In this document: positions 511-38,976 of the stretch, piece after piece
Layout of the letters: every line of letters starts with the position of its first letter
How positions within the stretch are numbered: position 1 is the stretch's first letter
Assembly: GCA_030583845.1 (NCBI GenBank)
Contig: CP129478.1
Location: forward strand, 587,686-651,685
Length of the DNA: 64,000 nt
Direction: 5' to 3'
Source of the DNA: Candidatus Dojkabacteria bacterium
GTDB lineage: Bacteria > Patescibacteriota > Dojkabacteria > SC72 > JAHDCA01
Program-made: the position numbers and the translations under genes
The notes under the pieces: model-generated
What the model saw: the letters and a program-made list of their open reading frames with translations, nothing else
Databases searched by the model: none
What the model was told of the DNA's origin: nothing

Positions 511-512
511 AT
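482..512 (+). repeat. Tandem 11-bp repeat TACGACTATAA x ~2.8.
   Basis: Reads tacgactataa tacgactataa tacgactatg directly in the sequence. Confidence 0.7.
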
Positions 513-1542: not shown

Positions 1543-1612
1543 GGTAGGGAATCGTCGTGTTATGGACATAGCGCTGTTTGCGTGCTACAATAATCTCGGA
1601 AGTTATGTAGGG

Positions 1613-1640
1613 AAGGTGAGTTTAGGCTCACCTTTTTTTT
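1613..1640 (+). terminator. Rho-independent terminator after fic.
   Basis: AAGGTGAG-tttagg-CTCACC hairpin followed by T8. Confidence 0.6.
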
Positions 1641-1761
1641 ACCCCGATGATTTGTGACCTGTTGATTGAGAGTTGAGGGTAACTTCACACTCTTAACCAC
1701 GCGGTTTACATAAATCTGTTATCATAATTCCGACAGAAATAAATTTTACATTTCATTAAAA

Positions 1762-3030: not shown

Positions 3031-3081
3031 GAAGGCGGATAAACTTAACGGAGCTACTACGTGAAAAAGGACCACGTTCCG

Positions 3082-3396: not shown

Positions 3397-3403
3397 GACA
3401 GCA

Positions 3404-5026: not shown

Positions 5027-5154
5027 AGAACAGTTAGTTACATTGGCAATTCATATGGCGATCATATATTTGCTGTCCAAGCTCCCGCTGAGGCTATATA
5101 ATCGCTTGTAGACTTTACCGCTGATGCGGGATCTAATCCATAATAAGGGGATAT

Positions 5155-6738: not shown

Positions 6739-6859
6739 TATGGGAAAAATGCACGATCCATTTTCTGGGTTTCTGGGAACAACTAAACAACCCGGATTTT
6801 AAAGTACACGAATTCGTGTACTTTAAAGATAGTGATAGTTATGAGGAGTAAAAAGTGTT

Positions 6860-8693: not shown

Positions 8694-8706
8694 CAAGAGA
8701 TACAAC

Positions 8707-21781: not shown

Positions 21782-23071
21782 ATGCGCAATCGCAAACTTT
21801 TCAAGGTTGTTGTGGTCTCGGCACTCGTGTTATTTGGCGGGTTTGTGGCTTTTCTCGGCTACACCTACTGGCAAACAAGCCCATCCAAATTATACGTCAC
21901 CAACATCACTGACCGTTCCGCTTCCATCTCGTGGGTCAGCAATGAGGCTACAACTGGTGTAGTGATAGTAAAGGAGGGCAACTACATGCTCCCTCTTAAG
22001 CTCACGACTAATGGTAGTACCCGCGCCGGCTTCGATGATAGAGATCGTGCCCGTGCAGAGCTTGAAGCATCCGAGCAGACAGCTGAAAATCTTGCAGATG
22101 GCACAGCCGCCACAGCAGATGATGTCCAGACAGATGTAACGATCAAGAACTATGGCGAGTATTATGTGCACCACGCCACAATCACAAATCTAAAGCCCGA
22201 AACTGAGTACGACTTTATGGTAGGCAATGGCTGGTTCTTCCACAAGGAGAAGAGTGTCGTTGGTGGATCAGACAAATTTACTACTTTCGCACAGCTTGAT
22301 CAGCTTGCCACTCCAAACCCATCATATGGCAAGGTGGTTCTACCTGGTGAAGGTGATGATTACGAATCGAGCACTGACTCAGTGCTTTATATGAGAGTGG
22401 ATTTTGGCGGTAACAAAGTATCTCAGGTATTGTCTTCGGTAACTGCTGAGAATGGATCATGGTATATCGACCTTGGAAATGCTCGAGATGAATTCGGCAA
22501 TGAGGTCGGAGAGGTGACAGAGGATTTAAATGAGAAGGTATGGGTCGAGGGTGGTCCAAATGGTATGGTTGAAGAGTTCGATAACCCTACAAGTCTGGAT
22601 GCGCCGATGCAGATACTGTTCTTAGAAACTGATGAGGTTGAGGCACGAGCGCCTTTTGATTTCTTAGCAGGTGAAGTAAATGCTGAGTGCTGTGAGGCGT
22701 TTACCTGTGTTGATGCCGACGGGACTACTGTAGCTTCGTATGGTGGTGACGATGACTTTGGAGGAGGTAGTTGTGAGACAAGAAAGACAGGCATCTGTCC
22801 GAGTGGTAGTTCGCCTGTAGGTGGAGCGAAGTGTGGTGATACATCATCGACACCTGGAGCTCCTTCGCAGCCTGGTGGTAGTCCAACTGCTCCAGCAGGG
22901 GCATGTTCGAGCCCTCAGTCAGGAAATTGCCACAACAAATACAACACATCGATCCAGATAGGGTCTAATCCGTATAATGCCTGCACTTGCACATTTTTAG
23001 ACAGCTCTAATCCGGCACTGTGCGGTTGCCATTATATTCCCTCCACAGACACCATCTCCTTCCAATCCTGA
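21782..23071 (+). CDS. Surface protein paralog 1, N-terminal part. It has an N-terminal TM anchor, an FN3/purple-acid-phosphatase-N-like domain, and the start of a Cys-rich region. It is probably the 5' portion of one frameshifted gene running to 24399.
   Basis: Hydrophobic KLFKVVVVSALVLFGGFVAFLGY. Domain signature SASISWVS...YYVHHATITNLKPETEYDFMVG. The Cys/Pro-rich tail continues without stops in another frame (23001-23459). Confidence 0.6.
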   Translation: MRNRKLFKVVVVSALVLFGGFVAFLGYTYWQTSPSKLYVTNITDRSASISWVSNEATTGVVIVKEGNYMLPLKLTTNGSTRAGFDDRDRARAELEASEQTAENLADGTAATADDVQTDVTIKNYGEYYVHHATITNLKPETEYDFMVGNGWFFHKEKSVVGGSDKFTTFAQLDQLATPNPSYGKVVLPGEGDDYESSTDSVLYMRVDFGGNKVSQVLSSVTAENGSWYIDLGNARDEFGNEVGEVTEDLNEKVWVEGGPNGMVEEFDNPTSLDAPMQILFLETDEVEARAPFDFLAGEVNAECCEAFTCVDADGTTVASYGGDDDFGGGSCETRKTGICPSGSSPVGGAKCGDTSSTPGAPSQPGGSPTAPAGACSSPQSGNCHNKYNTSIQIGSNPYNACTCTFLDSSNPALCGCHYIPSTDTISFQS

Positions 23072-23217: not shown

Positions 23218-24399
23218 TTGAAGATGCTACAGCAATACCCGTTTCACCTGTTACCGGTGGTGATGAACCGGGCAGGTACGATGGGGTTCAGTGGACTGGT
23301 AGTAATGCGAGGGCAGAATGTGAAAGCTTATGTGATGGTAACTGTGTCGATCACTATAAGCCAGAGACTGAGGTTGGACGGTATTCAACTCCACAGTTCG
23401 CCTCAACTGCATGTGGGAATAATAGCAATTGTTATCCTGGTACTTGCGCCGTTGAGTGAGGCTTCTACTGGTGAATATGCAGCAATCTGTAACTTGTATC
23501 AATACACCGAGTGTGAAGTTTCCGATGAAATGTTTCAGGCTCCATCAGTGGTGAAGAGTGCGTACGCCCAAACCAACCCCGAATCCCAAGAGTTCCTCTT
23601 CGATCCATCAGCAGGCGTCTACTATGTGGGTGAAGCAGGTGTTTACCAGATCGAATATGAGGGTCAAACATATGAAGCAATTGTCGGAGAAGGTGATCAG
23701 AATGTAATACTGTATATCGACGAAAATGCAAATGGTACATACGATGAGGGTACGGACATTCAGATCTCAGTTAACCCATCGGAGCTAAATGTCGCCCAGA
23801 CCGCTGAGGCACACACATATGATTTGCAAGCTGGATTCAACTTTATCCACCTGCCATTTATCCCTGAAGATTACCCGATGGCATCTGACCTGTTGGAGTA
23901 TGTCAACAACGAGTATGGCGGAATTGCTTTCTCGATTGCCAAATTTGACGACACCTGGAAAGTAGTCGGTGCAAATGGTGGCGAGTTCAATGTAAATGAT
24001 TTCCAGCTCGTGCCAGGTGCTGGCTACCTGCTCAAAATAACTCAGGATACTGAGGTTACATTTACGGGGCGGGAGATCCTTTATGAAACTGAAGGCGATA
24101 CTGCGCCAGTATTCTTCGCACCAGGATGGAACTTGGTCGGTATCTACGGTAGTAATGCAGCTGTTTACTCGGCTGAATCCATGATTGACAGCCTAAACGA
24201 GTATGAAACGACAGATTTTACAGCGGTCAACGTCACACGATGGCCACCAGAGAAGGCACGGTATGAAGGATTGCAAAAGGAGATGGGTGAAGATGGAGAG
24301 TACGATGTATATGGCTTCGACTTCCCATTAAATCAGTATACTTCATACTTTGTGAGAATCACTGAAGGTACTGGTAATTGGGAGCCGGCGATGGAGTAG
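23218..24399 (+). CDS. Surface protein paralog 1, C-terminal part with the conserved ~200-aa C-terminal domain. It is probably the 3' portion of the same frameshifted gene.
   Basis: The C-terminus aligns with the C-terminus of 24782-27853: GFNFIHLPFIPEDYPMASDLLEYVNNEY...SIAKFDDTWKVVG...LVPGAGYLLK...PGWNLVGIYGS...YSAESMIDSLNE...TAVNVTRWPPEKARYEGLQKE...YGFDFPLNQYTSYFVRITEGTGNWEP. The real coding start is probably upstream by read-through from frame 3. Confidence 0.6.
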   Translation: MKMLQQYPFHLLPVVMNRAGTMGFSGLVVMRGQNVKAYVMVTVSITISQRLRLDGIQLHSSPQLHVGIIAIVILVLAPLSEASTGEYAAICNLYQYTECEVSDEMFQAPSVVKSAYAQTNPESQEFLFDPSAGVYYVGEAGVYQIEYEGQTYEAIVGEGDQNVILYIDENANGTYDEGTDIQISVNPSELNVAQTAEAHTYDLQAGFNFIHLPFIPEDYPMASDLLEYVNNEYGGIAFSIAKFDDTWKVVGANGGEFNVNDFQLVPGAGYLLKITQDTEVTFTGREILYETEGDTAPVFFAPGWNLVGIYGSNAAVYSAESMIDSLNEYETTDFTAVNVTRWPPEKARYEGLQKEMGEDGEYDVYGFDFPLNQYTSYFVRITEGTGNWEPAME

Positions 24400-24561: not shown

Positions 24562-24810
24562 ATGAATAAGAAGAAGTTATACGTAATAATTGGGATTATC
24601 GCACTTTCGCTGGGCATCGCGGCGGTCAGCTTCTGGTTTGTAAATAGCAAAGCTCCCGATGTTGTGAATGTGACCAATGTGACATCGTCATCCGCGACAA
24701 TCTCGTGGGTAAGCGATGAAGCCGAACCCGGCAAGGTAATCGTCAAACGGGGTAATTACCCATTTCCATTCCAGCCGCGTAATGCAGAGCACGCAGGTAT
24801 ATTTCGATGA
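24562..24810 (+). CDS. Surface protein paralog 2, N-terminal fragment (TM anchor plus start of the FN3/PAP-N-like domain). It is truncated by a frameshift and continues in 24782-27853.
   Basis: MNKKKLYVIIGIIALSLGIAAVSFWF then SSATISWVSDEAEPGKVIVKRGNY. The stop is created at GGT ATA TTT CGA TGA. Paralog 1 reads RAGFDDRD at the same point, and here FDDRD continues in the +1 frame. Confidence 0.6.
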   Translation: MNKKKLYVIIGIIALSLGIAAVSFWFVNSKAPDVVNVTNVTSSSATISWVSDEAEPGKVIVKRGNYPFPFQPRNAEHAGIFR

Positions 24811-27800
24811 TAGAGATGTAGCCGAGTGGGAGGTGAATAATGCAAGCAGTGAAAGCGCATCTGTTGAATTACCAGACCTGACCGACGACGAGATCGGACT
24901 ATACTATACCCATCATGTCACTGTAGTCGGTCTTGAGCCCGATACAAAGTATGACTTTATGGTTGGCACTGGCAATTTCTTTTACAGAGCAACCGACCAT
25001 GATGGTGCAAATGAATTTACCACAGCCGCAATAGCCGACGAGATTGATACACCGGACCCTGCCTACGGCAAGATAGTGGCAACCGGTGAGACCATGTCTG
25101 ACCTGATCCCAGTCGTCGATGCAAATGTTTACTTCTATGTTGAGAATTCGTTTGGAGATGTTCTCACCAATAGGATCTCAGCAACATTAAATGATGAGGG
25201 CTCATGGTATCTCGACCTCAATACACTGTATGACAGTGAGGGAGAGGTATTCTTCTCAACTATCCCGGAAGAGGAGACAGAGCTCTACAAAGAGGTTGTT
25301 GAAGTTCATGTCCCAAGTGGTGATATCTACATGAAGCGAATCTCGCCTTCAGAGGACACTCCGGCTGAAGATATGCTGCTAATTGAAGATTATAAGGTTG
25401 AGAAAGCAATTGAAGGTGAACCCCCATTAAGTGGACTAGCATCATCCGCATATGCATGGGATCTTACCTGTCCAAATGGTAAAAAATTGCATGCTGATGC
25501 AGCTGATGAAGCCAGCTTTATAGCCGTATATGGCGCATCTCAAGCCCAATCGAAGTGGGAGCAGGAGGCAAGCGGCTACTGTGGCGACCCGAACACCCCG
25601 AGCTGGCAAGAGGGCCAGCCTACTGTACAGCTTACCGACGAAGTCTGCGCTGTAACCTATACTGAGACAGGCGCATTTGGCTCTAACGATGGCTGTGAGT
25701 ATAACTGTGTAGGTATGGGGCATAGAACCATAGGTGGTGATTGTAAGAATGAATGGGGTAATGGCTCCTACTGCCAGAAGAAAGATCCAAACTGTGGAAC
25801 TGTGTGCGTAGGTGGTGAAGTATGTAAGCAGGGAGATTTCTGTATTTCTGGTGATTATCAGTGCTGCACTGCAGGATGTAATGTGAGAGGCTCCGAGGGT
25901 GGTAGCTCAGGCTCTGGAAATGGGTCTGGTACTCCTACCAATCCATCTGTGTGCCCTAACAAGAAGCCTGACAATGCAACTGAGAGGTGTGGTGAAGATA
26001 ATGTCTGTAATACTGGTGAGTGGTGTGGAGACTTGAATGGTGTTAGCTGTAAGTGCGGTGAAGGGACTGTCGAGTGTGGGATGGTGTGTACACAGTCGAT
26101 CTCCGAAGGCAAGGTAGCTGTAAAAGTATGTTGCCTGTATCATGGTGTGCCATCGCTATTGACGAACTATACAGGGGAATGTCCAATAGGCTGGCAAGAG
26201 GGAACTCAGAACCAATGCAAGACAACGGCGGGTACGTTGCCAACAGAGCCTGTGTGTTGTAAACCTCCAAGTGGCGAGGATATATGGATGTATACTCCAT
26301 CGGGACAGTGTGAAGCGCCACTGGTTTCATCAACTTGTCCAGCCAAGCCTAAGCCTGTACCTCTGCCAATCAATCAATCAACTCCTGCTCCAGTCGTGAC
26401 AAGCGGCAGTGAGTATACAAACACATGCACTGTCGAGCCTAATCAGAGATGTGGTGATTGTAAAGGGCAGGTAGGTGAGGCAAATGGCATAACTTATATG
26501 TGTACAGATATTGGAGCCGGTAGCTTCTTATATTGGTGGAAAGCTGTTGTGCCTGCTGGTGAGAGATGTCCTGATGGAAATGAGTGTATATGTGTAACTA
26601 GAGGCGGTGATGGTTCGATCGAACATTACTCTGGTGACCACAATTGCAATTCTTTAGCGCAGCCTGCTGGATCGCTTACTCCGATAGGTAACAACCAGCA
26701 GTGTCCCGCGGACAGCAACGGATGCTTCTGTGATACTCAAAATGGATACATATATCCTGGCTCATGGTGTGGATATGCCGTCTCATGTGACGCCAATAAC
26801 GTCGGAAGCGTGTGTAATAACGATGGCACAACATGTGAATTCACTGAAGGACAAACGGCTACATATACTACGTTAGGTGGAGATACCAAGACTATGCCGT
26901 GGGATGAATGTCAAAATACCCCTGAGTGTATCAACGGCTATCCACAAGTTCGTTCAGGTGAATATACATGCACTGGTCCGACAGCTTCATCTTTGGACAA
27001 CGGGTCTGACCTCATCTCAGAAGCTAGCACAGCTGTGCTTGGTGCGGGAACGGGTAGGTCGGTCAAAGTGTCTCCTCAAAACAACGCTGTAGCTATAGAT
27101 GATAGTGGAATATATTGTACCGCTGTCGATGCTCAGGAGTACTGCTTCGAATTAACCGATGCAGCAGAAAATATCCTTTACGCTGATCTAAACGGTAATA
27201 ATACCTACGAAGAAGGTACTGATTTACTGGTCTCTCAGGATGGTAGAGAGCTTGAGCTCCAACAGCAAAATACCACCTTCGACTACCAGATGGTGAAAGG
27301 ATTCAATTTCGTCTCGTTCCCATTTGTTAACGCAAGCTATATGGCTACAGCTTCTGATCTACTGACCTATCTGAATTCCGAATATAGCAATGGTTTCTAC
27401 TCCATCGCGAAATTTGAAGCCGGTCGTTGGAGAATTGTTGGGAATAGAGAAGGCGACAACTATGGCTCAGAGGACTTCCCATTGGTTCCAGGAGAGGGAT
27501 ACCTGTTTAAAGCCAATCTTGACATCTTAATTTCATTAAGTGGTCAGCGAATTACAGAGCCAGTCCCAGTGTATATAGCAACAGGCTGGAACCTAATCGG
27601 TGTTAATAGCGGTAGCGATGAATCCAAATACACAGCTGAAAGCCTAATTGACGACGTTAACTCAACCGAGGGACTCACCGCAGTGAACCTATCGCGCTGG
27701 TCAACCAGCAAAGCCCGCTACGAAGGCCTACAGAAAGAAGATGTTGATGGCACTGCACAGGTTTATGGTTTCGACTTCCCGGTCGACAACCGTAGCTCAT

Positions 27801-27853
27801 ACTTCTTGAGAATCGTTGAAGGTGAGGGACTTTGGACACCCGACGCACAATAG
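24782..27853 (+). CDS. Surface protein paralog 2, main part. It has the rest of the FN3/PAP-N-like domain, a ~550-aa Cys-rich region (more than 60 Cys) and the conserved C-terminal domain.
   Basis: YYTHHVTVVGLEPDTKYDFMVGTGNFFY completes the domain. Cys-rich repeats read CxxGxxC...CC. The C-terminus is GFNFVSFPFVNASYMATASDLLTYLNSEY...GWNLIGVNSGS...KARYEGLQKE...YGFDFPVDNRSSYFLRIVEGEGLWTP. Confidence 0.65.
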   Translation: MQSTQVYFDDRDVAEWEVNNASSESASVELPDLTDDEIGLYYTHHVTVVGLEPDTKYDFMVGTGNFFYRATDHDGANEFTTAAIADEIDTPDPAYGKIVATGETMSDLIPVVDANVYFYVENSFGDVLTNRISATLNDEGSWYLDLNTLYDSEGEVFFSTIPEEETELYKEVVEVHVPSGDIYMKRISPSEDTPAEDMLLIEDYKVEKAIEGEPPLSGLASSAYAWDLTCPNGKKLHADAADEASFIAVYGASQAQSKWEQEASGYCGDPNTPSWQEGQPTVQLTDEVCAVTYTETGAFGSNDGCEYNCVGMGHRTIGGDCKNEWGNGSYCQKKDPNCGTVCVGGEVCKQGDFCISGDYQCCTAGCNVRGSEGGSSGSGNGSGTPTNPSVCPNKKPDNATERCGEDNVCNTGEWCGDLNGVSCKCGEGTVECGMVCTQSISEGKVAVKVCCLYHGVPSLLTNYTGECPIGWQEGTQNQCKTTAGTLPTEPVCCKPPSGEDIWMYTPSGQCEAPLVSSTCPAKPKPVPLPINQSTPAPVVTSGSEYTNTCTVEPNQRCGDCKGQVGEANGITYMCTDIGAGSFLYWWKAVVPAGERCPDGNECICVTRGGDGSIEHYSGDHNCNSLAQPAGSLTPIGNNQQCPADSNGCFCDTQNGYIYPGSWCGYAVSCDANNVGSVCNNDGTTCEFTEGQTATYTTLGGDTKTMPWDECQNTPECINGYPQVRSGEYTCTGPTASSLDNGSDLISEASTAVLGAGTGRSVKVSPQNNAVAIDDSGIYCTAVDAQEYCFELTDAAENILYADLNGNNTYEEGTDLLVSQDGRELELQQQNTTFDYQMVKGFNFVSFPFVNASYMATASDLLTYLNSEYSNGFYSIAKFEAGRWRIVGNREGDNYGSEDFPLVPGEGYLFKANLDILISLSGQRITEPVPVYIATGWNLIGVNSGSDESKYTAESLIDDVNSTEGLTAVNLSRWSTSKARYEGLQKEDVDGTAQVYGFDFPVDNRSSYFLRIVEGEGLWTPDAQ

Positions 27854-28232: not shown

Positions 28233-28303
28233 CCATATCTTGCGCTGTGAGTATCCTACACGAGTAGACAATTTCTGCTCTGTTTCCTATTATAAAAGCA
28301 GAA

Positions 28304-30214
28304 ATGTACATCACACCTAGGCAGAAAAAAAGGTATATATTCAGATTCACACTTGTCGCTTTAGCCATTCCGCTAGTGGTTTTGGCCATCTATGCTGGTG
28401 TCCAATGGTTTTCAAGCGCTGACACCGAAGCAACTCCCGAGGATGTAGTTATCAGCAACCTCACTACCAGCGCTGTCACATTGAGCTGGACCACGACGGT
28501 GGATGCTAGCTCCAGCGTGAAGATGGTCGAAAGCGGAGATGTCTTCACCGATCCGCGAGGTGCAAGCTCAAGAAGGACCCATTTTGTTGAAGTCACTGGG
28601 CTCGAGCCAGAGACAGAGTATGAGTTCAAAATCACTTCAAATGGCCAGGATTATACCGCAGAGGGTGGAGCTGCATTTAGATTTACCACTGCCCCAGTGA
28701 GCGATGAGGCCTCAGTGCCCTTCCCAGCATATGGGACAATAGAGGGTGCGAATGGAGATGATGCACTTATTTTCTTCGTGGTTGCTGGTGCCACTCAATC
28801 TCTGCCGGTCTCAGCAGTGCCGCAATCAACAGGGAACTGGATCTTGGATCTATCTTCAGTCCGATCACTGGATGGTACTTCATTAATACAGGTCAGCAGC
28901 GATAGCTCTGTTGAGCTTCTGGCAATCGGGCATGACGGGATGGGCTCGAGAGTCACAGGAAAATTTAGCGATCTTTTCGACGAAGAGGGGATGCTTATTG
29001 CGGAATTTTCTCTTCAGTCCGATACCGATGTGATGGCCTACCTACCTGGCGCGTCAAAGATTACGACGATTATTGCTGAGCAGCCACCAGGAGAGGAACC
29101 ACCACCGTCTGAAGAACCACCACCATCTGAAGAGCCGCCTCCATCTGAAGAACCACCACCATCTGAAGAGCCACCTCCTGCTGAGGAGCCGCCACCATCT
29201 AACGACTTTGACCCTGCATCAAGACAGTTCCTGATTCGCGCCGATATCGTGTGGGTTGATATGGTTGAGATAACAGGCGATGGTGCTGCTCCAGTAGTTG
29301 TGACCGGTGAGCAGTCGGTACAGCTTGTTGCACGAAATGACACCAGCTTCTCTGTCGTATGGCTTACAGAAGATGAGGTCCCGGGCTATGTAAGCTATGG
29401 AGAGGATGAAGATGATCTGATCGAAGAGGCGATCGACATTCGCGACACCTTGGTATCGCGCGGAGATTACAGATCACACCTAGTCGAGATATCTGGTCTT
29501 ACCCCTGAGACCATATACTACTTTGAGATACATTCGGGCGACGAGACATACTCGTTGAACGGAGAGCCATATCAACTAGAAACATTTGACACAGTGGTCA
29601 CTCCACCACCATTTAGTACAGCCCAAGGCACAGTATCTGGCTTAGAGAGTTATGACGATGTTGTGGTGCTTGTGCAGCTAAATGATGTTGATGGCGCAGG
29701 TACTGCAGGTGCATCACAGCTTGGAGCTGTAGTCCCTGATGAGAATGGTGCTTGGATCGCAAGCATCGGCGACCTACGAAGCGAAAGTGGCACTGAGTAC
29801 TATGTGTTAGGCGATACAGATGAGGTTACAGCTGAATTGGTTGTATACGCTAATTCTGAGCCAGTCACGATTACAGGTGATGAGATTGAGGATAGTGAGC
29901 TAGCCTTGACTGCCGATCCGCCTACAGAGGGTGGGAGCAGCTACCAGCGAATAGCCTTGCTAAATGATTATGGGGTCTCATCGACCTATGCGGAGTCTCC
30001 AACAAGTGGCGTAGGGGGTGGTGGCCCTGCCGATGTCGATACTGGGAGCGAGATTACTACACCGAAGACCGGTATTGAAGATAACTTGGTAGTGGCTTCA
30101 GCGGTTGGTGGAGGTTTGCTTACGGTTGGGGCGGCTACTTTGTTGGTCGCTTACAGTGGTCGTGGCAAGAAGAAGGGCGTAAACAAGGGCTCTTTGACTA
30201 GTCGGGTCTCATAG
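28304..30214 (+). CDS. Cell-surface protein with an N-terminal TM anchor, two FN3-like domains, (EEPPPS)6 repeats and a C-terminal LPXTG-like sorting signal.
   Basis: FN3 signatures VTLSWTT...THFVEVTGLEPETEYEFKI and SFSVVWLTEDEV...YRSHLVEISGLTPETIYYFEI. The C-terminus reads TPKTG, then a 21-residue hydrophobic stretch, then RGKKKG. Confidence 0.7.
   Translation: MYITPRQKKRYIFRFTLVALAIPLVVLAIYAGVQWFSSADTEATPEDVVISNLTTSAVTLSWTTTVDASSSVKMVESGDVFTDPRGASSRRTHFVEVTGLEPETEYEFKITSNGQDYTAEGGAAFRFTTAPVSDEASVPFPAYGTIEGANGDDALIFFVVAGATQSLPVSAVPQSTGNWILDLSSVRSLDGTSLIQVSSDSSVELLAIGHDGMGSRVTGKFSDLFDEEGMLIAEFSLQSDTDVMAYLPGASKITTIIAEQPPGEEPPPSEEPPPSEEPPPSEEPPPSEEPPPAEEPPPSNDFDPASRQFLIRADIVWVDMVEITGDGAAPVVVTGEQSVQLVARNDTSFSVVWLTEDEVPGYVSYGEDEDDLIEEAIDIRDTLVSRGDYRSHLVEISGLTPETIYYFEIHSGDETYSLNGEPYQLETFDTVVTPPPFSTAQGTVSGLESYDDVVVLVQLNDVDGAGTAGASQLGAVVPDENGAWIASIGDLRSESGTEYYVLGDTDEVTAELVVYANSEPVTITGDEIEDSELALTADPPTEGGSSYQRIALLNDYGVSSTYAESPTSGVGGGGPADVDTGSEITTPKTGIEDNLVVASAVGGGLLTVGAATLLVAYSGRGKKKGVNKGSLTSRVS
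29093..29200 (+). repeat. 18-bp tandem repeat x6 encoding (EEPPPS)6.
   Basis: gaggaaccaccaccgtct and five near-identical in-frame units follow one another. Confidence 0.85.
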
Positions 30215-30337: not shown

Positions 30338-31864
30338 ATGTTGAAACTCGATAAAAGCAATTCACTATTTTTTCTGTTGGGCATCTTTGCACTGCTTTTT
30401 CTCGGCTATGTAGCCCTTTTCTATGAAAGCGATGCTTTTTATAGCGATGCGAAAGCCCCGGCAGAAGCATCCACAAGTAGCGAAGAGGCTGGTGGGTCAC
30501 AGGAAGTAGTGTTGGTGGGAAATACGGTCGGAGAAAATGTGGAAGTCCCAGAGATCACCGAAGAGCAGTATCGTCTTGTAAAAGAGCTAGTAATTGCAGC
30601 CGAGCCTTCACTCGCGAGCATGAGCAATCTGGATGAGGTTATTCGGGAGCCATATCTGGCTCAAAATATTGCTAGCCTGATGGAGCAGGTGGAAGAAAAT
30701 GATCTGACAGTGACACAGGTTCGAGCATCAGTACGTGGTGCTGGTACTGGGGATTTTAGCCCGACCGGTGAAGATTGCGCGGCAGGCGCGAAGGTGATTT
30801 TGATGGATCCGGCCTGTTATATTACCGAAGAAAACACCTCAATTAACGAGAATCTAGGTAACTATGTAGGCTCAGGGTGTGACAATAACCCTGCAACCCC
30901 GTGCCAGGTGCGGGCCAGCTCAGTTATTGAGCCGTGGGAGATCAATGGCCCAGATCAGAACCAGGGCTACTCTGCTGGAACTGATGTACGAGGAAAGACC
31001 GAGAGTGAACGGATCCTGATTCAGAACAAGCAGATGAAAGATGGAGTCCTAGCCTATCACTCAGAGAGCGGTAGCTATTATGGCGATGCCTCGGATGCGG
31101 AGAAGTATGAGCAGTTCAAGCAGGTAAATATGGGCGTGGCAAATTTGCTACGTCCACAGCTAGCAAGGGAGGTTTCAGAAGACTCAGCTGATGCCAAGAG
31201 AGACTTTGCAGTAGAGATCTGCGCAGGTGGTGAAGAGGTGTGTGATCAGAACGAGAAGACATTGGCCAGATTCAAAGGTACCAACTCAGATGGTGATTAT
31301 CTTAGCCCTGCAAACAGCAATAAATTTGCCGAGGCCAGATATTTTGGGAAGGCGCTCCAGCCACCTACTGGTGAGGTCGAGACTGAGCTACGAAATGAAT
31401 GCGTTGATAACAGCTCTCCACAATATCGCAATATTAGTAAGACAGATCAGCTATGTCTTGGGTCACGCAGGGTTTCTGATGTGTATCATGGCGTAAAGCA
31501 GCTTGGCAATGAGATACTTTGCAGACTAAGGCCGAATGACAGCGATTGTCAGCTACAGGTTGTTACAGGCATCCAGGTCGGTTCGATGTTTGGCGATACT
31601 GAGTATTTTGTTGAAGGAATATCTAGCAACTATATGGCAGAAGCAATGGTTTCAGTGTATTCTTCCCCTGTTGATGACAGGAATGTGACTATGCTTAGAA
31701 CTCCGTGTACAATACGTATAGATTATTCTAAGATTGTTGACGTATACTGTTATATCAAGAATCAGAATGAGTATGCAGAGTTCTCAAGGCAGGCTGCAGA
31801 GATGACGCCCGGAGATTCATTCAAGTATGAAGCATATGGAAGCGCGCTTGAGGAGGAGTTTTAA
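30338..31864 (+). CDS. Secreted or membrane-anchored Cys-containing hypothetical protein.
   Basis: N-terminal hydrophobic anchor FFLLGIFALLFLGYVALF. About 14 Cys are scattered in the mature part. No recognisable catalytic motif was seen. Confidence 0.55.
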   Translation: MLKLDKSNSLFFLLGIFALLFLGYVALFYESDAFYSDAKAPAEASTSSEEAGGSQEVVLVGNTVGENVEVPEITEEQYRLVKELVIAAEPSLASMSNLDEVIREPYLAQNIASLMEQVEENDLTVTQVRASVRGAGTGDFSPTGEDCAAGAKVILMDPACYITEENTSINENLGNYVGSGCDNNPATPCQVRASSVIEPWEINGPDQNQGYSAGTDVRGKTESERILIQNKQMKDGVLAYHSESGSYYGDASDAEKYEQFKQVNMGVANLLRPQLAREVSEDSADAKRDFAVEICAGGEEVCDQNEKTLARFKGTNSDGDYLSPANSNKFAEARYFGKALQPPTGEVETELRNECVDNSSPQYRNISKTDQLCLGSRRVSDVYHGVKQLGNEILCRLRPNDSDCQLQVVTGIQVGSMFGDTEYFVEGISSNYMAEAMVSVYSSPVDDRNVTMLRTPCTIRIDYSKIVDVYCYIKNQNEYAEFSRQAAEMTPGDSFKYEAYGSALEEEF

Positions 31865-31882
31865 TATTAAGTAACGCCCAAA

Positions 31883-33361
31883 ATGGTAGATCGAATATAT
31901 AAGATATACAAATTCGCAGGAAAGATAGCTAGGTCGAGGGCTTTGAACAGTGCGCTGGTGCTTGTGGCGACATTCGGTCTAGGCTTGGAGGTCGTATCGC
32001 CAATTGTCTATGCACAAGACGGCGAAGGTAATGCAACCGTTGACGCAGGAGAGTCTTATACTTCTGGGACTGCTGTGATTGATACTCTGACAGAGTCAGA
32101 GGGTGTGACAGACAGTGCGAATCTGGCACAAAATCAGGCAACAGACTTCGCGATTGTTGCACTTTCGATTACATGTATGGAGTGTCTCGAGAATGCAGAT
32201 GATGTGGCTGCCAACCCAAATATCCATCCTTCTGCAAAGACAAGTCTACTGACCCTCGTTGATAATAACAATAGACAGATGCTTACAAATCCGCCTACAC
32301 AGAACCTTTACGCACATATGCAGACCCAGTGGATGCCAGGCGAGACATATGCAAATAGAAGCGTCTATGCTCAGTCTGGGTATGACTTACTCATATCGAC
32401 CGGCATTGATCAGCTCTGGGAAAATGTGAGAAATGTTGCCTACGTTATCTTCGTGCTAGTGCTTATAGTTGCCGGGTTTATGATGATGTTTAGGCAGAAA
32501 ATAGGTGGTCAACTGGCTGTGACGGTATTCAACACAATTCCTCAGGTCATAATATGCCTGATATTGGTAACATTCAGTTTCGCCATAGTCGGTTTAGTCT
32601 TAAATCTTAGCGCCACGCTTACAAATGTAGCTGCTGGTATTCTTGGCCTAGCTGATCCGACAGATGGTGTAACGGCCACGGGGCCGCTTTCAGTGTTTAG
32701 CGCATTTATTTCTGGGAATATTGTTACTGTTGGTGCGGCAAGTGTAACGACAATAGTAACTACAGTAGCAGGATCGATCTTGGCAAATAGTGGAATTGCA
32801 GCACTGGGTATAGCTGCCTCTCCATTGGCAGGTGGTACACTAGCTATTATAGGTCTTGTTGGCATCTTGATAGTGTTAGTTATCCTCGGAATCGTTCTGG
32901 TTGGATCAGTGAAGGTATGGATTACCCTTCTAAAGGCATATGTTGGTATACTTATCGATACAATATTGGCTCCACTCTATTTAACAATGTCCGCCTTGCC
33001 TGGCAGATCTCAGATGCGCGGAGATTGGTTTAGACGAATCCTCAAAAATGCATTAACTTTTACTGTTGTGTTTTTCTTCCTTAATCTTGCGGCTTTTGTA
33101 TTTAATGCAAACATTAATCTTGGATTTCCTACCTCTCTGGCAGAAGGTCAGACAGCTCCAGTTGGCTCTGGCCCCGTTTTGCTTGCGTGGCTGCTGAAAG
33201 GTGCAGTCTCGATCTATCTAGTATATGTAGCGGCTGAGGCACCTAAATTCCTTGAAGAGTTCTTGCCGCAGACTGGTGGGAAGAGTGTTGCAGGGGCACT
33301 GCAGTCAGCTGCTAAGGGTGCATTTGGCAAGCTTCCAATTGTCGGTGGCATGATGGGCTAA
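31883..33361 (+). CDS. Polytopic membrane protein with a VirB6/TrbL-like topology: a signal peptide, a ~170-aa extracytoplasmic domain, then 5-7 TM helices.
   Basis: Signal-like SALVLVATFGLGLEVVSPIVYAQ. Dense TM bundle from VAYVIFVLVLIVAGFMMMF onward, with Gly/Ala-rich helices. Confidence 0.6.
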   Translation: MVDRIYKIYKFAGKIARSRALNSALVLVATFGLGLEVVSPIVYAQDGEGNATVDAGESYTSGTAVIDTLTESEGVTDSANLAQNQATDFAIVALSITCMECLENADDVAANPNIHPSAKTSLLTLVDNNNRQMLTNPPTQNLYAHMQTQWMPGETYANRSVYAQSGYDLLISTGIDQLWENVRNVAYVIFVLVLIVAGFMMMFRQKIGGQLAVTVFNTIPQVIICLILVTFSFAIVGLVLNLSATLTNVAAGILGLADPTDGVTATGPLSVFSAFISGNIVTVGAASVTTIVTTVAGSILANSGIAALGIAASPLAGGTLAIIGLVGILIVLVILGIVLVGSVKVWITLLKAYVGILIDTILAPLYLTMSALPGRSQMRGDWFRRILKNALTFTVVFFFLNLAAFVFNANINLGFPTSLAEGQTAPVGSGPVLLAWLLKGAVSIYLVYVAAEAPKFLEEFLPQTGGKSVAGALQSAAKGAFGKLPIVGGMMG

Positions 33362-33437
33362 TGAGCTGTTTTTCGACCAATTCCCAAGCTGAGAGAATCA
33401 GGCCACTGTTCTGAAATAATTATGTGAGCATAACTTA

Positions 33438-36400
33438 ATGGCGCAAAGAAAAGACCTATACTCCAATTCGTTCTCCTCGGTGTCGAGCTTTATTTTGGGT
33501 AATAACAAGCCTAAGAAGCCTGTAAAACGCAAGCCGCCTAAGTATGATGGGATTGATTATAATGATGGTCTCGCAGGCGCGCTTGCAACCATGGCAGGTG
33601 CGCCTGGTGTGTTTCTGGGTGAATCAGCCATAAACTCGCTTAACTCCACCCTTGGAGACCCTTCTCTGATAGAGCTTTATATTGATAAAAGCGAGAAGCA
33701 AAAGATGCAGGGTCTGGATAAGAATGCTGGACGTATTAGGGTCCGTGGATCTGACCTTAACAAGTTTATACAGTCTCCAAGCTCATTTCTCGACAAGGCA
33801 CTTCAAGGTGCACGTGCTGAACGGAAGTGGGCACTTACGGTAGCGCTTCTTGGTGGTGGTGCAGAGGTAGCAAATACCTATATGTGGGCAAAGAAAAACA
33901 ACCTCAGCAATAGTGATGCAGCTCGGCTTGCAAGCTCGGTATGGGATCTGGATAAGAGTATTTACACCGATCAAGAAAGTCTTGGAATAATGACAGAAAC
34001 GGCGCTCCTTAAGAGTGGAGGCCGGTCGATCAAAGAGGCTGAGGAATTAAACGCCAAACTTGTGGCGAGCGTGGCAAAGCAGAAAGAGGGTAGGCAGACT
34101 GTATCACGTTTATGGACTGGAGCGGCATCCGATGTTTCTGATCACATAATGTCTGGTGCACTGTTTAAATCTCAAGATGAGTACTCAAAATTTCTCTTGG
34201 AGAAGGGTCTTAAAGATAAGGAACGAGACTTAGTCTTGAAGCTTAGAGCAGGTACACTTACGGAACCGGAGGAAGTTAGTTACGCCAATCGGCTTGAGAA
34301 TGATCTCAAGTCTGCCGCTGCAGCAGGATGGCCTAAAATTACGTCGCAGAAGACAAAGCTAGATGCTCTTGTTAGTCAGAGCATACCAGATCCGGCAGCT
34401 CGTGAGCGATTCTATCAAGAGTTTGCGAAAGAGTATACCTCAAGGTATGGAAAAGTTGATTATACGGCAACAGGCAACTTAACGAATTTCGGTGTCCGCG
34501 AGATGTTGAAGGATAATTATTGGGCGAAGGCACAGCTTTCGACTGGAGCTGATAAGGAGAAGTATCTGAGAACAATAGCAGCTGTAGATGTATTGCAGAG
34601 GACGAAATCGCCGGGTGATTATTCAAAGCCTGATTACGATAAAGCAAGAGAGGCTGTTACATCACTCAAAGGACAGCCAGGTGTATCTCAGTCGGATATA
34701 GATGGCCTCTTGGGACAGATAAATAAAGCGGAGTCAATGTACGCAAAACGGTATGTTAAGCATCGTGCGCATAATGAGGTTGAAACTAAGTGGCTAAAGC
34801 CACTTAATAATCCGATGATGTCCTATGAAAATGCTCCTGAGGCCAAGCTTTTGCTTGAGGCCAAGCTGAAAACAAGCAGATATAGTCTTATATCACGAGG
34901 TTTAGCAGTGGATGACCCACGGGTACAAGAGATCGATTATGCGTTGGAGACGTTAAAAAGTGGGTTCAACCCGTTTGGTGGTGGTCGTCCACGTATGGCA
35001 AATATGATAATGATGTACCGCTCAAGGGGTAGCATGGCAAATTTTGTACCTGGGCTGTTTACTGGTGCTTCCTATGCCGATGGTGTGATGTCACCAGGGG
35101 ATTGGGGAGGGATCACTATGAAATATAGGATGAAAGATCGTTGGGGGGTTGATAAGAACGGTAACCCGAAGTTACAGGTCGGAGAAGCTAAAGGATTTAT
35201 CCTGCAAGGCCGCTCGCACCTTCCAACTGCATATCAAGGGCTAGTGAACTACTACTATCTGACTCCAGGCAGTTTGATCAAGAGTACATTGTGGAATGGT
35301 GAGGGTCTTTACTACCTTGCAGAGCAACGAAGGCGCCGAGGGATTACCAAGATGCTTTCTGAGCTCGATCCCGATAAAATCCAGAATCCAACAGGCTCCC
35401 TGGCGAAGTACTTCGAAGCGTTGAAGGATGATGCGGGCAATGTAACGGGGCATAGGTTTATGTGGGAAAAGGTGGATGGGGATTTTCTTGGGATTCTGGA
35501 AGCGCTAAAAGATTCTGGCTACGCTGAACTATACAGGAAGTATGACAAAGTATTTAGAGGATATGAGTCTACTGTCGCGTGGGCGCATAGATTCGCAATG
35601 CCTGAAAGATTTTTCGGAAATAAGGGGGTAATCGGAGCGCAAAGACTTAAACTTCAAGGTAAAGTTGTACAATTCTTTGGTGCATTGTCAAAAAATAAAG
35701 AATGGAATGCTGCACTTAAGCTGTTCGGAGCAGGTGAGATCGGGCTCTATCAGCTGGTCGAGGCTGGTGTGAAGATTGTATTTGGCACAGTACTTAAGGC
35801 TCTCGGCCCAGTCGGTACCGTACTCTCATTTGTCATCACGGATGTAATTGTCTCAGCCCTTGTCAAAATAAGCAAACCAATCCTCGATATGAGCGTATTT
35901 GCCCTAATGGCAACGGTCGCTCTCTTCTTCCTACTTCTCTGTACAGTAATCTCAAGCCCATTCACTCTTGCCAACCGCCTCAAGACACATGCAGTCCAGC
36001 CGCCAGTCGAGGGAGTCGAGCTCGAGCCATTGCCAGGTGAATTCCCGGATGATCCAGATGCAGTAGTTATTGACCCAACCAAAGATGCGATCTGTCCAAT
36101 AAATGCAGGTGCAATCTGTACGCAGGGACCACGCGGCTCCTACTCACACGCCAGGATGGGTACATATGCAATCGATGTGAGCACAGGTGCAGGTCCATTC
36201 AGAGCGCCAACCGATGGTGTAGTTGTGAGTGTGAGATCGTCAAACTCTTGCCCATGGGGACCAAACCGTGGAGCAAATTATGGTGGATCTGTTGTTTTCC
36301 GATCGTCGGATAATATCTACTATGAAGTGATGCACGCAAATCCAACAGTAGGCACTGGTCCTGTTGAGCAGGGCACAGTGTTAGCGACAATGGCTTACGG

Positions 36401-36554
36401 ATTGCCACGAAGCGGGTGCTGGACTGGGGCACACTACCATATCGATACCTGCTTCGGCAGCCAGTCTGCTTGTGTAGCTCGAAGCCGAAGTGCCAGATGG
36501 CTTAACTCTAAAGATTGGTATAACGAGTTGAAATGTAATATCCGCGGATGTTAG
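33438..36554 (+). CDS. Large (1038 aa) protein with a ~760-aa N-terminal domain, an internal TM hairpin and a C-terminal M23 (LytM-type) peptidase domain.
   Basis: M23 motifs HARMGTYAIDV...GAGPFRAPTDGVVV (HxxxD and active-site region) and GAHYHID (HxH). TM segments at aa ~770-840 (IVFGTVLKALGPVGTVLSFVITDVIVSALV and VFALMATVALFFLLLCTVI). Confidence 0.7.
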   Translation: MAQRKDLYSNSFSSVSSFILGNNKPKKPVKRKPPKYDGIDYNDGLAGALATMAGAPGVFLGESAINSLNSTLGDPSLIELYIDKSEKQKMQGLDKNAGRIRVRGSDLNKFIQSPSSFLDKALQGARAERKWALTVALLGGGAEVANTYMWAKKNNLSNSDAARLASSVWDLDKSIYTDQESLGIMTETALLKSGGRSIKEAEELNAKLVASVAKQKEGRQTVSRLWTGAASDVSDHIMSGALFKSQDEYSKFLLEKGLKDKERDLVLKLRAGTLTEPEEVSYANRLENDLKSAAAAGWPKITSQKTKLDALVSQSIPDPAARERFYQEFAKEYTSRYGKVDYTATGNLTNFGVREMLKDNYWAKAQLSTGADKEKYLRTIAAVDVLQRTKSPGDYSKPDYDKAREAVTSLKGQPGVSQSDIDGLLGQINKAESMYAKRYVKHRAHNEVETKWLKPLNNPMMSYENAPEAKLLLEAKLKTSRYSLISRGLAVDDPRVQEIDYALETLKSGFNPFGGGRPRMANMIMMYRSRGSMANFVPGLFTGASYADGVMSPGDWGGITMKYRMKDRWGVDKNGNPKLQVGEAKGFILQGRSHLPTAYQGLVNYYYLTPGSLIKSTLWNGEGLYYLAEQRRRRGITKMLSELDPDKIQNPTGSLAKYFEALKDDAGNVTGHRFMWEKVDGDFLGILEALKDSGYAELYRKYDKVFRGYESTVAWAHRFAMPERFFGNKGVIGAQRLKLQGKVVQFFGALSKNKEWNAALKLFGAGEIGLYQLVEAGVKIVFGTVLKALGPVGTVLSFVITDVIVSALVKISKPILDMSVFALMATVALFFLLLCTVISSPFTLANRLKTHAVQPPVEGVELEPLPGEFPDDPDAVVIDPTKDAICPINAGAICTQGPRGSYSHARMGTYAIDVSTGAGPFRAPTDGVVVSVRSSNSCPWGPNRGANYGGSVVFRSSDNIYYEVMHANPTVGTGPVEQGTVLATMAYGLPRSGCWTGAHYHIDTCFGSQSACVARSRSARWLNSKDWYNELKCNIRGC

Positions 36555-36567
36555 TTAGGAATCAAAT

Positions 36568-37659
36568 ATGGACAAGCTGCTCAACATAATAAAAAAGAAT
36601 AAAGTCGTGGTGCTTGGAGCTCTAGGGCTGTTGCTGGTAATTGCTATTGCACTAATTGTTATGCAGCTAATTGGTGGTGAAGAGACAGAAATCCCGAAAG
36701 GGAGTGTTGACCAGCCTTTTACATATGAGACGGGCAAGCAGTTGGAGATACCGGAAACAGTTGAGTACACAAATTTCGACCCAGGTGATGATACGACTGC
36801 GCCAATTTACGAATTTGCACTTGAGAATAAAGTCGATCTTGTGAAATCGTTCCTGGGTAGCATCGGTAAACGCTCGATGGAGCTCGAGGAGTATGAGGAT
36901 GTTGTGTATTACTGGAGAGATGACCCGAGCGATGATTTCTATGTGGTTGAGTACAACGCGTTGACCGACCGTGTATTCTTTAGATTTGAGAGCGCTGTAG
37001 ATCCAGACCTGAATGCTGGTGGATATCTGAGCAGAGAGGATCTCGAACAGTATTTTACTGCTTTTGTTCATGAGTATTGGGATCAGTCGTACAGCTACAC
37101 TGATTTCAATGTGACTAGGGATGGATCGACTTATCGAATTGAGGCGAGCAGGCTGATTGGGAAGTATCCTTTGCACATCTCTGGCTTTGAAGAGTATTCG
37201 GATTATCTGGTTGTTGAAGATGATGGAGATATACTCGAGGGGCAGATCTATCTGATGAATTACGATCTCTCTACAGCACAGAATGTTGATCTTATTACGA
37301 CAGTTGGTCTCGGATCAGTGATCGGGCGAGATGATTATCCGAAGGATTTCTATCAATTGGAGCCTCAAGATCTTGATGGTACCTTATTATATGGTGAGCC
37401 ATACACACCTGCACAATCAGCAGGTGATCCTCCTCCAACGCCTGATGGTGAGATCCCAGAATTGACCGAGTGCACAGCTGAAGAGATATCGTTGGTGTAC
37501 CTCTACATGAGCGGTACATATCAGATGCTTACCCCAGCGTATAAGATCAGGTGTGCTGGAAATGTCGTCGTAGAAGGTAGGAGCTATAGAACAGAGGCGC
37601 TTGTTTTTGCCAATGCGATCGATCCGGAGCTTGTGTATGTGCCGGCAACGACGGAGTAG
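36568..37659 (+). CDS. Membrane-anchored extracytoplasmic hypothetical protein.
   Basis: N-terminal TM VVVLGALGLLLVIAIALIVMQLI. Acidic, aromatic-rich body with C-terminal Cys residues. Confidence 0.55.
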   Translation: MDKLLNIIKKNKVVVLGALGLLLVIAIALIVMQLIGGEETEIPKGSVDQPFTYETGKQLEIPETVEYTNFDPGDDTTAPIYEFALENKVDLVKSFLGSIGKRSMELEEYEDVVYYWRDDPSDDFYVVEYNALTDRVFFRFESAVDPDLNAGGYLSREDLEQYFTAFVHEYWDQSYSYTDFNVTRDGSTYRIEASRLIGKYPLHISGFEEYSDYLVVEDDGDILEGQIYLMNYDLSTAQNVDLITTVGLGSVIGRDDYPKDFYQLEPQDLDGTLLYGEPYTPAQSAGDPPPTPDGEIPELTECTAEEISLVYLYMSGTYQMLTPAYKIRCAGNVVVEGRSYRTEALVFANAIDPELVYVPATTE

Positions 37660-37779
37660 CTTACGGATGGGTTATGTAAGAAATTCATTAACTCTTAATG
37701 GGAGATTCTGTATATAATAGTGCCGCTACTGACTAATTTTGTAGTTGCGGATTTAATCTTTGCCCGATAAGATATAGGT

Positions 37780-38976
37780 ATGAAAATTTTGACCAAGATT
37801 GTAAATATTCTGCTTGTTGTTGCCGCGTTTGTGGTGGTTGTGCCTCAGGTTCCAGGATATCAAGCTGTCAAAAGAGAAGATCTTGGTTTTGATGAAGGTC
37901 TCTCAAGCAAAGACGCTGCACTATATGCATTTCCAGGTAAGATATTAATAACACAGGTCGAAGCTCCAAATACCGCGATGGAATCTGACCCGGAATCATG
38001 GATCGATCTGCTCTACTACTACTACATCACAAGACTCGGTTTTGGCGACCTACCATACACCTATCTGGTTGATAAGTCGGGCACAGTGTACGAAGGCCGC
38101 TCGAATTATGAGGGAGTTGTGCCAGAGCTGCTGGATGCAGAAGGTGCTGTGCTAATTGGCTATCTATCAAATGGTGCCGATGTTACCTCTGCAGCAGCAG
38201 ATTCAATCAACGAGCTGGTCGAAGAGGTCTCATATAAATATGGAATCACTCGTGAAAATGTAGAGGCCGTTGACCTTGAAGTATCTCAGCAGACTGCTGA
38301 AGGTGAGCTGAGCAAGCTCGAGTATAAGAGTACTGATTCAATGTTTGCAGATGAGCTTGATCAGATCCTTTCAAAGGTTACATATTCCGATAGAGAAAAT
38401 TTGAGCTTTAAGGCAGCTGTCAGCGAGGTAAGCTTCGAAGAGAAGGTGCCGATCGGCGGGAAGCTAACTGTGAAATTCAAACTGAAGAATGATGGCGATA
38501 CTCCATGGTTTACACTGAACGATTTTGTCTATGTGGTCACATCAAGCAACGAAGATAGTCAATTTGCGGTAAATGGTGAGTGGGATAGCTTCGATACACC
38601 AACCCATGTTGAGGGCAAGACTGTGTTGCCTGGCGAGAGCGTAGATATTGAGTTCCAGATGGCAGCCAATACAATGCCTGGTGAGTACTCTGAGAGCTTC
38701 AAATTTAGCCGTACTGGTGGTAAAGATCTGCAGGGTGGTGAGTTTGAAGTTAAGTTCACAATCGAGCAGGGCGATGTCCAACTGATTGAGATCACAGAAA
38801 CTGAGACCGGTAATCTAAATGTCCGCAAAGACCCAAATCTTGGGGCACAGGTGGTTGGACAGGTTGATTCCGGCGCAATCTTTGTAGTTAAAGAATCGCA
38901 AAATAACTGGTATAAGATTGAATATGAGCCTGGCGCAGATGGCTGGGTGATCGGTAGATATATAAAGCGGCTTTGA
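37780..38976 (+). CDS. Secreted amidase_2/PGRP-like domain protein with a C-terminal bacterial SH3 (SH3b) domain. The catalytic Zn ligands are possibly substituted.
   Basis: Signal/TM ILLVVAAFVVVVP. LGFGDLPYTYLVDKSGTVYEGR resembles the amidase_2 GYHFLI..DG.I..GR block but lacks the His residues. The C-terminus TGNLNVRKDPNLGAQVVGQVDSGAIFVV...NNWYKIEY..GADGWVIGRYI has an SH3b signature. Confidence 0.55.
   Translation: MKILTKIVNILLVVAAFVVVVPQVPGYQAVKREDLGFDEGLSSKDAALYAFPGKILITQVEAPNTAMESDPESWIDLLYYYYITRLGFGDLPYTYLVDKSGTVYEGRSNYEGVVPELLDAEGAVLIGYLSNGADVTSAAADSINELVEEVSYKYGITRENVEAVDLEVSQQTAEGELSKLEYKSTDSMFADELDQILSKVTYSDRENLSFKAAVSEVSFEEKVPIGGKLTVKFKLKNDGDTPWFTLNDFVYVVTSSNEDSQFAVNGEWDSFDTPTHVEGKTVLPGESVDIEFQMAANTMPGEYSESFKFSRTGGKDLQGGEFEVKFTIEQGDVQLIEITETETGNLNVRKDPNLGAQVVGQVDSGAIFVVKESQNNWYKIEYEPGADGWVIGRYIKRL

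Follow-up and report, generated by a model that had tools for sequence, protein, structure and literature searches.

A gene in the genome of a Candidatus Dojkabacteria bacterium (WS6, candidate phyla radiation [CPR]) encodes what we judge, with a probability of about 0.78, to be a secreted surface protein that is processed by a sortase. The gene occupies 28304..30214 (+) of the DNA that was analyzed, a 64,000-nucleotide part of the closed 1,036,382-bp genome that is referred to here as the window. In the list of open reading frames (ORFs) it is complete, begins with ATG and specifies a precursor of 636 amino acids (aa). All features of the precursor given below lie on the same (+) strand.

The C terminus of the protein reads ...GGGGPADVDTGSEITTPKTG-IEDN-LVVASAVGGGLLTVGAATLLVAYSG-RGKKKGVNKGSLTSRVS. 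It has the three parts of a sortase sorting signal: the recognition motif TPKTG (residues 586-590; 30059..30073), at which the alignment to the LPXTG model TIGR01167 starts; the uncharged, hydrophobic membrane-retention segment LVVASAVGGGLLTVGAATLLVAYSG (residues 595-619; 30086..30160), which corresponds to a helix at residues 594-618 in the AlphaFold2 model; and the positively charged cytoplasmic tail RGKKKGVNKGSLTSRVS (residues 620-636; 30161..30211), which begins RGKKKGVNKG and is basic in the orthologues as well. A first-pass annotation of this DNA had described the tail as TPKTG-IEDN, 21 hydrophobic residues and RGKKKGVNKG. The motif and the basic end of that description stand, but the uncharged stretch is 23 to 25 residues long. 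Among the real genes of the window, 28304-30214 is the only one to combine PxT[GAS] with a hydrophobic segment and a basic C-terminal tail; the scan for such tails gave four other candidates, all of them ORFs antisense to the ribosomal operon or SecY.

The signal is conserved in related proteins. A first search recovered six orthologues with 41 to 49% identity, and five of the six keep TP[KVN]T[AGS] together with the hydrophobic segment and the basic tail. When 1.84 billion representative proteins were searched exhaustively with HMMER, 2319 passed E <= 1e-3, and these included about 45 full-length orthologues. The motif was examined in 153 sequences, comprising the best 150 matches, the six homologues from the first search and the window protein. 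Fifty-two of the 153 sequences contain xPxT[GAS] followed by 0 to 12 residues, an uncharged stretch of 15 to 32 residues and a charged tail. Among these 52, position 1 of the motif is T in 19, L in 18, I in 7, V in 5 and S in 3, K or N predominates at position 3, and position 5 is G in 23, A in 17 and S in 12. When full-length orthologues are considered, approximately 35 of 46 harbor xPxT[G/A/S], with 0 to 8 residues between it and a transmembrane segment that leads into a basic tail. In 36 aligned orthologue tails, the Pro and Thr of the motif are the only invariant columns, and the linker around the motif is unconserved. The conservation of a motif in such a setting is far beyond what chance would produce. 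Canonical LPxT[GAS] occurs in more distant relatives, and TPKTG is thus derived from LPXTG in a lineage-specific manner, within one family.

Of all NCBIfam models, only TIGR01167 (LPXTG_anchor) matched the isolated tail, with a score close to its threshold. At E <= 1, this model also matches 14 of the 36 tails from orthologues, the best of them at 5.7e-4. Other sortase-type models (NPXTG, LPxTATN and LAVTG) match a few orthologue tails, and Loki-CTERM, Heimdall-CTERM and CoaP match one orthologue tail each. The PEP-, PGF- and GlyGly-CTERM models match neither this tail nor any of the 36 orthologue tails, and this tail contains none of the corresponding motifs. Together with the conservation described above, these results support the proposal of the first-pass annotation that the tail is a sortase-type signal and speak against a different sorting system, which it had named as a possible refutation.

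The organism also encodes a sortase, as had been predicted. Pfam scans of every non-ribosomal ORF of 150 aa or more identified no sortase inside the window, and phmmer searches with Staphylococcus aureus SrtA and SrtB, along with a scan for the pattern TLxTC, found none in the window and 12 loci. The sortase lies upstream. A locus that extends the window through its first gene (L010), and that is 100% identical to window 1-6826, contains a sortase of 270 aa at L010:3795-4607(-). Its gene precedes window base 1 by 4.9 to 5.7 kb and is located some 33 kb upstream of 28304-30214. The protein scores 90.9 bits with Pfam Sortase (PF04203; cut-off 26.6) and 78.6 bits with TIGR01076 (cut-off 39.35). 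It is identical to the NCBI entry "MAG: sortase [Candidatus Dojkabacteria bacterium]" (P0162) on the 1,036,382-bp contig, which also bears EF-Tu, EF-G, SecY, PNPase and UvrD of the window (WKZ30734-WKZ30774, exact matches). His179 (IYGHS), Cys250 (TLMTC) and Arg259 are invariant in 11 sortase orthologues. Because the sortase is encoded in the same genome, the absence of a sortase, which the first-pass annotation had named as grounds for refuting its interpretation, does not apply.

The best solved relatives of the sortase are class C enzymes (8t28_A, E 2.6e-16). Its score with the class C model (NF033745) is 100.2 bits (cut-off 160); scores with other subclass models are 68.5 (LPxTATN-specific class D), 66.4 (class D subfamily), 52.4 (class E) and 36.2 (class F), and the NCBIfam models for class A or B do not match. 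In terms of gene linkage, the sortase and target orthologues share a contig in ERZ25072999 ctg318031, about 16 kb apart (checked by record name). Sortase orthologues are found on contigs of 54,313, 81,868, 114,294 and 230,490 bp, and target orthologues (P0001, P0003, P0002 and P0005, respectively) on contigs of these same lengths; matched by equal contig sizes, the two genes are apparently linked in three further genomes. The sortase heads a conserved operon (L013 10001-15270, upstream of the window). Its gene overlaps that of a solute-binding protein (SBP_bac_1), which is followed by a gene for a large membrane protein. In this genome the latter has 1001 aa, an Ig-like Big_7 domain and a very long C-terminal tail rich in Pro, Thr, Ser and Ala. 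The order sortase, solute-binding protein and large membrane protein, with dnaJ divergent, is kept in other Dojkabacteria contigs. We considered the Big_7 protein as a second substrate and rejected it, as its long tail is of low complexity and its layout is that of a type I membrane protein. Peptidoglycan-related genes present nearby encode LytR_cpsA_psr and YceG proteins, a G5/transglycosylase-like protein and an SH3_3 protein. Such genes in the region, with Rpf-like and M23-like products among them, lend indirect support to a linkage of the surface protein to the wall.

At the other end of the precursor, the ATG at 28304 can be regarded as the correct start because every orthologue begins with MY[IV]TP[KR]QK. 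By inspection, residues 1-39 (28304..28420) constitute an N-terminal Sec signal peptide, with the basic n-region MYITPRQKKRY, a hydrophobic core that forms a helix at residues 5-36 in the AlphaFold2 model, and FSSA followed by DTE as the predicted cleavage site. Ala39, the predicted -1 position, is invariant in 36 of 36 orthologues, and K8 is mostly conserved. Models for the YSIRK and KxYKxGKxW signals do not match the N terminus. MYITPRQKKRY (28304-28336) is nearly invariant in close orthologues, although n-regions of signal peptides are not usually so conserved. A promoter-like site at 28265-28293 ends 11 nucleotides 5' of the ATG and hints at a very short leader.

Between the two signals, the protein consists of two duplicated modules. 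The AlphaFold2 model, which was built on a shallow alignment of seven sequences and has a mean pLDDT of 64.5 (70 to 90 in the folded parts), places a fibronectin type III (FN3) domain at residues 45-128, a beta-sandwich at 141-258, a disordered region at 260-330, a further FN3 domain at 340-426, a further beta-sandwich at 439-538 and a disordered region at 540-593. FN3 domain 1 (residues 44-128; 28433..28687) is recognized by Pfam fn3 at residues 44-114 (39.8 bits, cut-off 25), by the beta-strands of the model and by Foldseek. FN3 domain 2 (residues 340-426; 29321..29581) is supported by the model and by the FN3-like Pfam family Pur_ac_phosph_N, whose best stretch is 340-415 (59.3 bits, cut-off 30). 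Foldseek searches of the PDB with the model retrieved only chains of multiple FN3 or Ig-like domains (anosmin, contactins and fibronectin; E of about 1e-8). The two FN3 domains that had been proposed from the sequence are thus real, with profile scores above the gathering cut-offs and the FN3 beta-sandwich fold. Each is followed by a second beta-sandwich domain, at residues 141-258 (28724..29077; model pLDDT of about 75 to 89) and at residues 439-538 (29618..29917). The two [FN3 + beta-sandwich] modules form an internal duplication (BLASTP of one half against the other: E 1e-11, 34% identity), and the neighboring ORF 21782-23071 carries the same module (E 5e-11). No catalytic domain was detectable in the 636-aa protein. 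The modules are followed by a disordered G/S/P/T-rich wall-proximal segment (residues 539-585; 29918..30058; pLDDT 24 to 32), which is poorly conserved except for LLxDYG and GGGGP and is likely the part of the surface protein that crosses the wall.

The two modules are separated by a repeat array. Tandem Repeats Finder detects a period of 18 bp with 5.8 copies at 29096-29200 (81% matches, no indels), and the in-frame sequence gives six EEPPP(S/A) units at residues 264-299 (29093..29200; pLDDT below 40). In order, these are four EEPPPS units, one EEPPPA unit and one EEPPPS unit, with synonymous changes between units; the (EEPPPS)6 originally reported is therefore accurate as to the number and period of the units but not as to the one unit with Ala in place of Ser. 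The same annotation had regarded the repeat as a wall-spanning stalk, which we do not support because the array is located in the middle of the protein between folded modules, about 285 residues N-terminal of TPKTG, a distance that includes one FN3 and one beta-sandwich domain. The array is a disordered, acidic, proline-rich interdomain linker. An alignment of 36 orthologues shows that the corresponding linker has between 20 and 148 residues, is hypervariable in composition and is built of unrelated low-complexity repeats (PE, PD, PT, GT/S, (GGGNN)n and Cys-rich units); the linker is therefore an evolutionary hotspot of repeat expansion. To this extent, the suggestion that the array is a site of length variation is supported between orthologues. 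It is not supported for copy number within the strain: the only other copy found of this gene, on a Logan contig of SRR24881069, is identical, the units are 81% identical in DNA, protein searches found no homologue closer than 47 to 49% identity, and exact-flank searches of JGI metagenome contigs for other repeat copy numbers returned nothing.

On the basis of this anatomy, we propose that the precursor would be exported by the Sec pathway via its signal peptide, probably with cleavage after Ala39, and would be retained in the membrane by the hydrophobic segment and the Lys/Arg tail. The membrane-anchored sortase, through His179, Cys250 and Arg259, is predicted to cut TPKT|G between T589 and G590 and would then transfer Thr589 to the amine of a peptidoglycan precursor. 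The mature protein would be covalently fixed to the wall via the flexible segment of about 47 residues and would project its two duplicated modules, spaced by the extended acidic linker. With no catalytic domain present, binding or spacing at the cell surface is the most likely role, and contact with a host cell or a particle, as expected for an epibiotic ultrasmall bacterium, is plausible.

The gene 28304-30214 is the first of six genes whose order is the same in all six related genomes examined. The five downstream genes (508, 492, 1038, 363 and 398 aa) are found at window 30338-38976, and the cluster is flanked by rRNA methyltransferase genes and by uvrD within a housekeeping region; other housekeeping genes in the window include nusA, infB, pnp, fusA, tuf and the ribosomal protein operon. 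Each of the five downstream proteins contains signal or transmembrane segments, and the majority belong to no Pfam family. The 508-aa protein is Cys-rich and secreted. The 492-aa protein (31883-33361) is a polytopic membrane protein with a subthreshold match to TrbC/VirB2 at residues 160-237 (E 1e-4, 22.9 bits, cut-off 27.9), a weak match that is seen in two of six orthologues. The 1038-aa protein (33438-36554) consists of an N-terminal part of about 760 residues that lacks a signal peptide, hydrophobic segments and a Cys-rich C-terminal domain in which D913, H966, H999 and H1001 are invariant; it matches Peptidase_M23 (two of six orthologues, E 0.004) and LECT2 (E 0.006) weakly. The 363-aa membrane-anchored protein (36568-37659; AlphaFold2 pLDDT 81.4) most resembles, among PDB folds, YycI (2o3o, E 3e-7) and the C-terminal PepSY domains of YpeB (5boi, E 2e-4). 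It may regulate a neighboring wall hydrolase. The 398-aa protein has a weak PGRP-like match along with Ig-like and SH3 domains.

Several points weigh against a sortase-processed surface protein. The score of the tail with TIGR01167 (14.0 to 15.1 bits, E 0.027 to 0.063) is just below the cut-off of 15.9, and the canonical Leu at motif position 1 is replaced by Thr. In the approximately 90 kb of the genome that could be read, there is no second xPxT[GAS] motif with a transmembrane segment and a basic tail. The sortase falls below every NCBIfam class A to F cut-off (about 140 to 166 bits), and because it reaches none of them, its specificity cannot be inferred from class. We know of no biochemical evidence of sortase activity for any CPR bacterium, and an adhesive role for the protein is likewise something that we infer. 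Moreover, about 11 of the 46 full-length orthologues, including that of WS6 GW2011_GWF2_39_15, stop right after LLxDYG and have no anchor (examples are L009 10001-11665, P0006, P0019, P0028, P0029, P0031, P0038 and others). This indicates that anchoring is dispensable in some lineages, and the orthologue family thus has anchored and non-anchored forms, the latter presumably released. A frameshift was considered as the cause of the loss in the WS6 GW2011 orthologue and rejected, as no anchor is encoded downstream in any frame.

The narrow failure of the curated LPXTG model could also be accommodated if the product were an ordinary type I membrane protein in which TPKTG remains uncleaved and the C-terminal helix is a permanent anchor. 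The helix at 594-618 and the basic tail resemble any stop-transfer anchor, and cleavage is a prediction. However, in about 35 orthologues a pentapeptide with invariant Pro and Thr is maintained 0 to 8 residues before the helix while the flanking linker drifts, canonical LPxT[GAS] is present in more distant relatives, and a sortase is encoded, in syntenic linkage, in the same genome. With the motif conserved in this manner, a permanent membrane anchor is unlikely. The arrangement of a short motif, a transmembrane segment and a basic tail is also common to the PEP-CTERM/exosortase, PGF-CTERM/archaeosortase and GlyGly-CTERM/rhombosortase systems, but that the tail belongs to one of these is hardly credible, given the lack of a PEP, PGF or GlyGly motif, the lack of NCBIfam matches in this and the 36 orthologue tails, and the lack of an exosortase-type protein among the large ORFs of the window.

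The relationship of the sortase to class C, both in its best subclass model (NF033745, 100 bits) and in its solved relatives (8t28_A), together with a substrate that is a chain of Ig-like beta-sandwich domains, raises the possibility that the protein is a pilin subunit polymerized head to tail into a covalent fiber. This is quite improbable. The mature protein has no Lys that is conserved in the 36 orthologues (K8, in the signal peptide, is the only conserved one), and the nucleophile of a pilin motif is therefore missing; in addition, the class C score is far under the cut-off of 160, the sortase resides 16 to 33 kb away in a solute-binding protein operon and not in a pilus island, and no CnaB or pilin family of Pfam matches. 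As the gene heads the six-gene cluster of fixed order, its product might instead be the adhesin of a type IV secretion-like machine encoded downstream, analogous to PrgB, the LPXTG adhesin of enterococcal conjugation. The TrbC/VirB2 match of the 492-aa neighbor points in this direction, as does the M23/LECT2-like domain at the end of the 1038-aa neighbor; wall hydrolases of this class occur in such machines. The type IV-like matches, TrbC and M23 included, are all subthreshold, however, the 64-kb window and its flanks contain neither a VirB4 nor a VirD4 ATPase, the 363-aa neighbor folds like YycI/YpeB (PepSY-like) and not like VirB8, and Pfam detects no PrgB-type polymer adhesin domain in the 636-aa protein. 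We consider this proposal very improbable and rejected a type IV secretion reading of the cluster, which has the appearance of a surface module associated with the wall.

Regarded as a sortase-processed surface protein, the Dojkabacteria protein can be compared with several known systems. It resembles Gram-positive LPXTG proteins (TIGR01167) in its signal peptide, modular beta-sandwich ectodomain, tripartite tail and partner sortase with His, Cys and Arg. It differs in the Thr at motif position 1 and the score just under the curated cut-off, in its host, a CPR bacterium with a 1.04-Mb genome, and in a sortase that fits no curated class from A to F. Streptococcal C5a peptidase is an example of an FN3-containing LPXTG surface protein. 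Motifs without Leu at position 1 are used by SrtB of Clostridioides difficile, which recognizes (S/P)PXTG; cleavage of SPKTG and PPKTG has been demonstrated experimentally (PMC4155245), and I/TPKTG motifs occur in predicted transposon-borne substrates next to an extra sortase (PMC6814731). The non-Leu position 1 and the xPKTG core are shared with the protein described here, whereas neither the protein families nor the organisms are related, the Dojkabacteria sortase is nearest to class C/D with no class B match, and the fifth position of the motif in the Dojkabacteria family is G, A or S. Class C sortase pilins are similar in being chains of Ig-like domains with a sorting signal and in that the nearest relatives of the Dojkabacteria sortase are class C; the Dojkabacteria protein differs from them in lacking a conserved Lys nucleophile, pilin or CnaB domains and a pilus island next to its gene. 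Among CPR bacteria, more than half of the genomes encode a sortase (PMC6744442), and most carry surface proteins with FN3, lectin or beta-propeller domains and sortase motifs (PMC5220378). These surface proteins and the CPR sortase family fam000526 represent the same phenomenon, described at the level of surveys. The orthologue family, the TPxT[GA] motif, the duplicated architecture and the fixed gene neighborhood are not described there.

Upstream of 28304-30214, two large paralogous genes for surface proteins look interrupted. ORFs 21782-23071 and 23218-24399 are in different frames and together correspond to one 853-aa gene of a related genome, and for ORF 24782-27853 a signal peptide and the first half of an FN3 domain are encoded in another frame just upstream (from about 24540). 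These genes could be pseudogenes, slippage sites or assembly errors. Three giant Cys-rich paralogues (23218-24399, 24782-27853 and L010 5897-9961) have no sortase signal and share a C-terminal domain of about 190 residues that belongs to no Pfam family and follows the pattern ...GFNF[IV]S.PF...GWNL[IV]G...Y(G)FDFP...W(T/E)P. A type I restriction-modification system (hsdM, hsdS and hsdR) is present at window 5155-11736, between infB and pnp, with a T5orf172/MUG113 gene between hsdS and hsdR; it looks like an inserted island because the related genome in locus L004 does not have it at this site. A Fic-domain gene is located at window 511-1542. Window 1-64000 has nearly all of its genes on the + strand, a GC skew that is positive over the whole length, and no tRNA gene. 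A scan of GTDB genomes yielded only four related loci, with inconsistent labels (Saccharibacteria, Nomurabacteria and WS6), and these names were not relied on. The labels also disagree for L002/L008, L006 and L007: JACKFR010000003.1 is labeled Nomurabacteria, as is its target orthologue, the sortase whose longest contig has the same size (81,868 bp) is labeled Dojkabacteria, and two other MAGs are labeled Saccharibacteria.

CPR bacteria (Patescibacteria) are mostly uncultured epibionts, and how they bind to other cells is poorly known. The protein described here is a well-supported and fairly ordinary predicted wall-anchored protein, and the understanding of sortase biology is not changed by it. 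What is new is modest, namely, a family with a Thr-first motif, a sortase of no assigned class and a fixed gene neighborhood; the novelty is limited because CPR sortases (PMC6744442), surface proteins with FN3 domains and sortase motifs (PMC5220378) and motifs without Leu (PMC4155245) have already been reported. The result is of value for annotation because the curated LPXTG model narrowly misses the 636-aa protein. One could speculate, as an idea that we regard as unlikely, that the Dojkabacteria sortase and the [T/I/V/S]PxT[G/A/S] signal are a distinct CPR pair and that the FN3 protein is the outward-reaching part of a lineage-specific envelope module, perhaps for host attachment or wall opening. 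If true, this module would be encoded by the invariant downstream genes and could be used in epibiotic growth to attach to the host and open its wall. Our results indicate that the Gram-positive route of wall anchoring is intact in this Dojkabacteria genome and that, within a single protein family, the sequence recognized has drifted away from LPXTG. They provide a testable pair, one sortase and one conserved TPKTG substrate in a closed 1.04-Mb Dojkabacteria genome, and may be of use in choosing surface antigens or bait proteins for experiments that aim to find the hosts of these bacteria.

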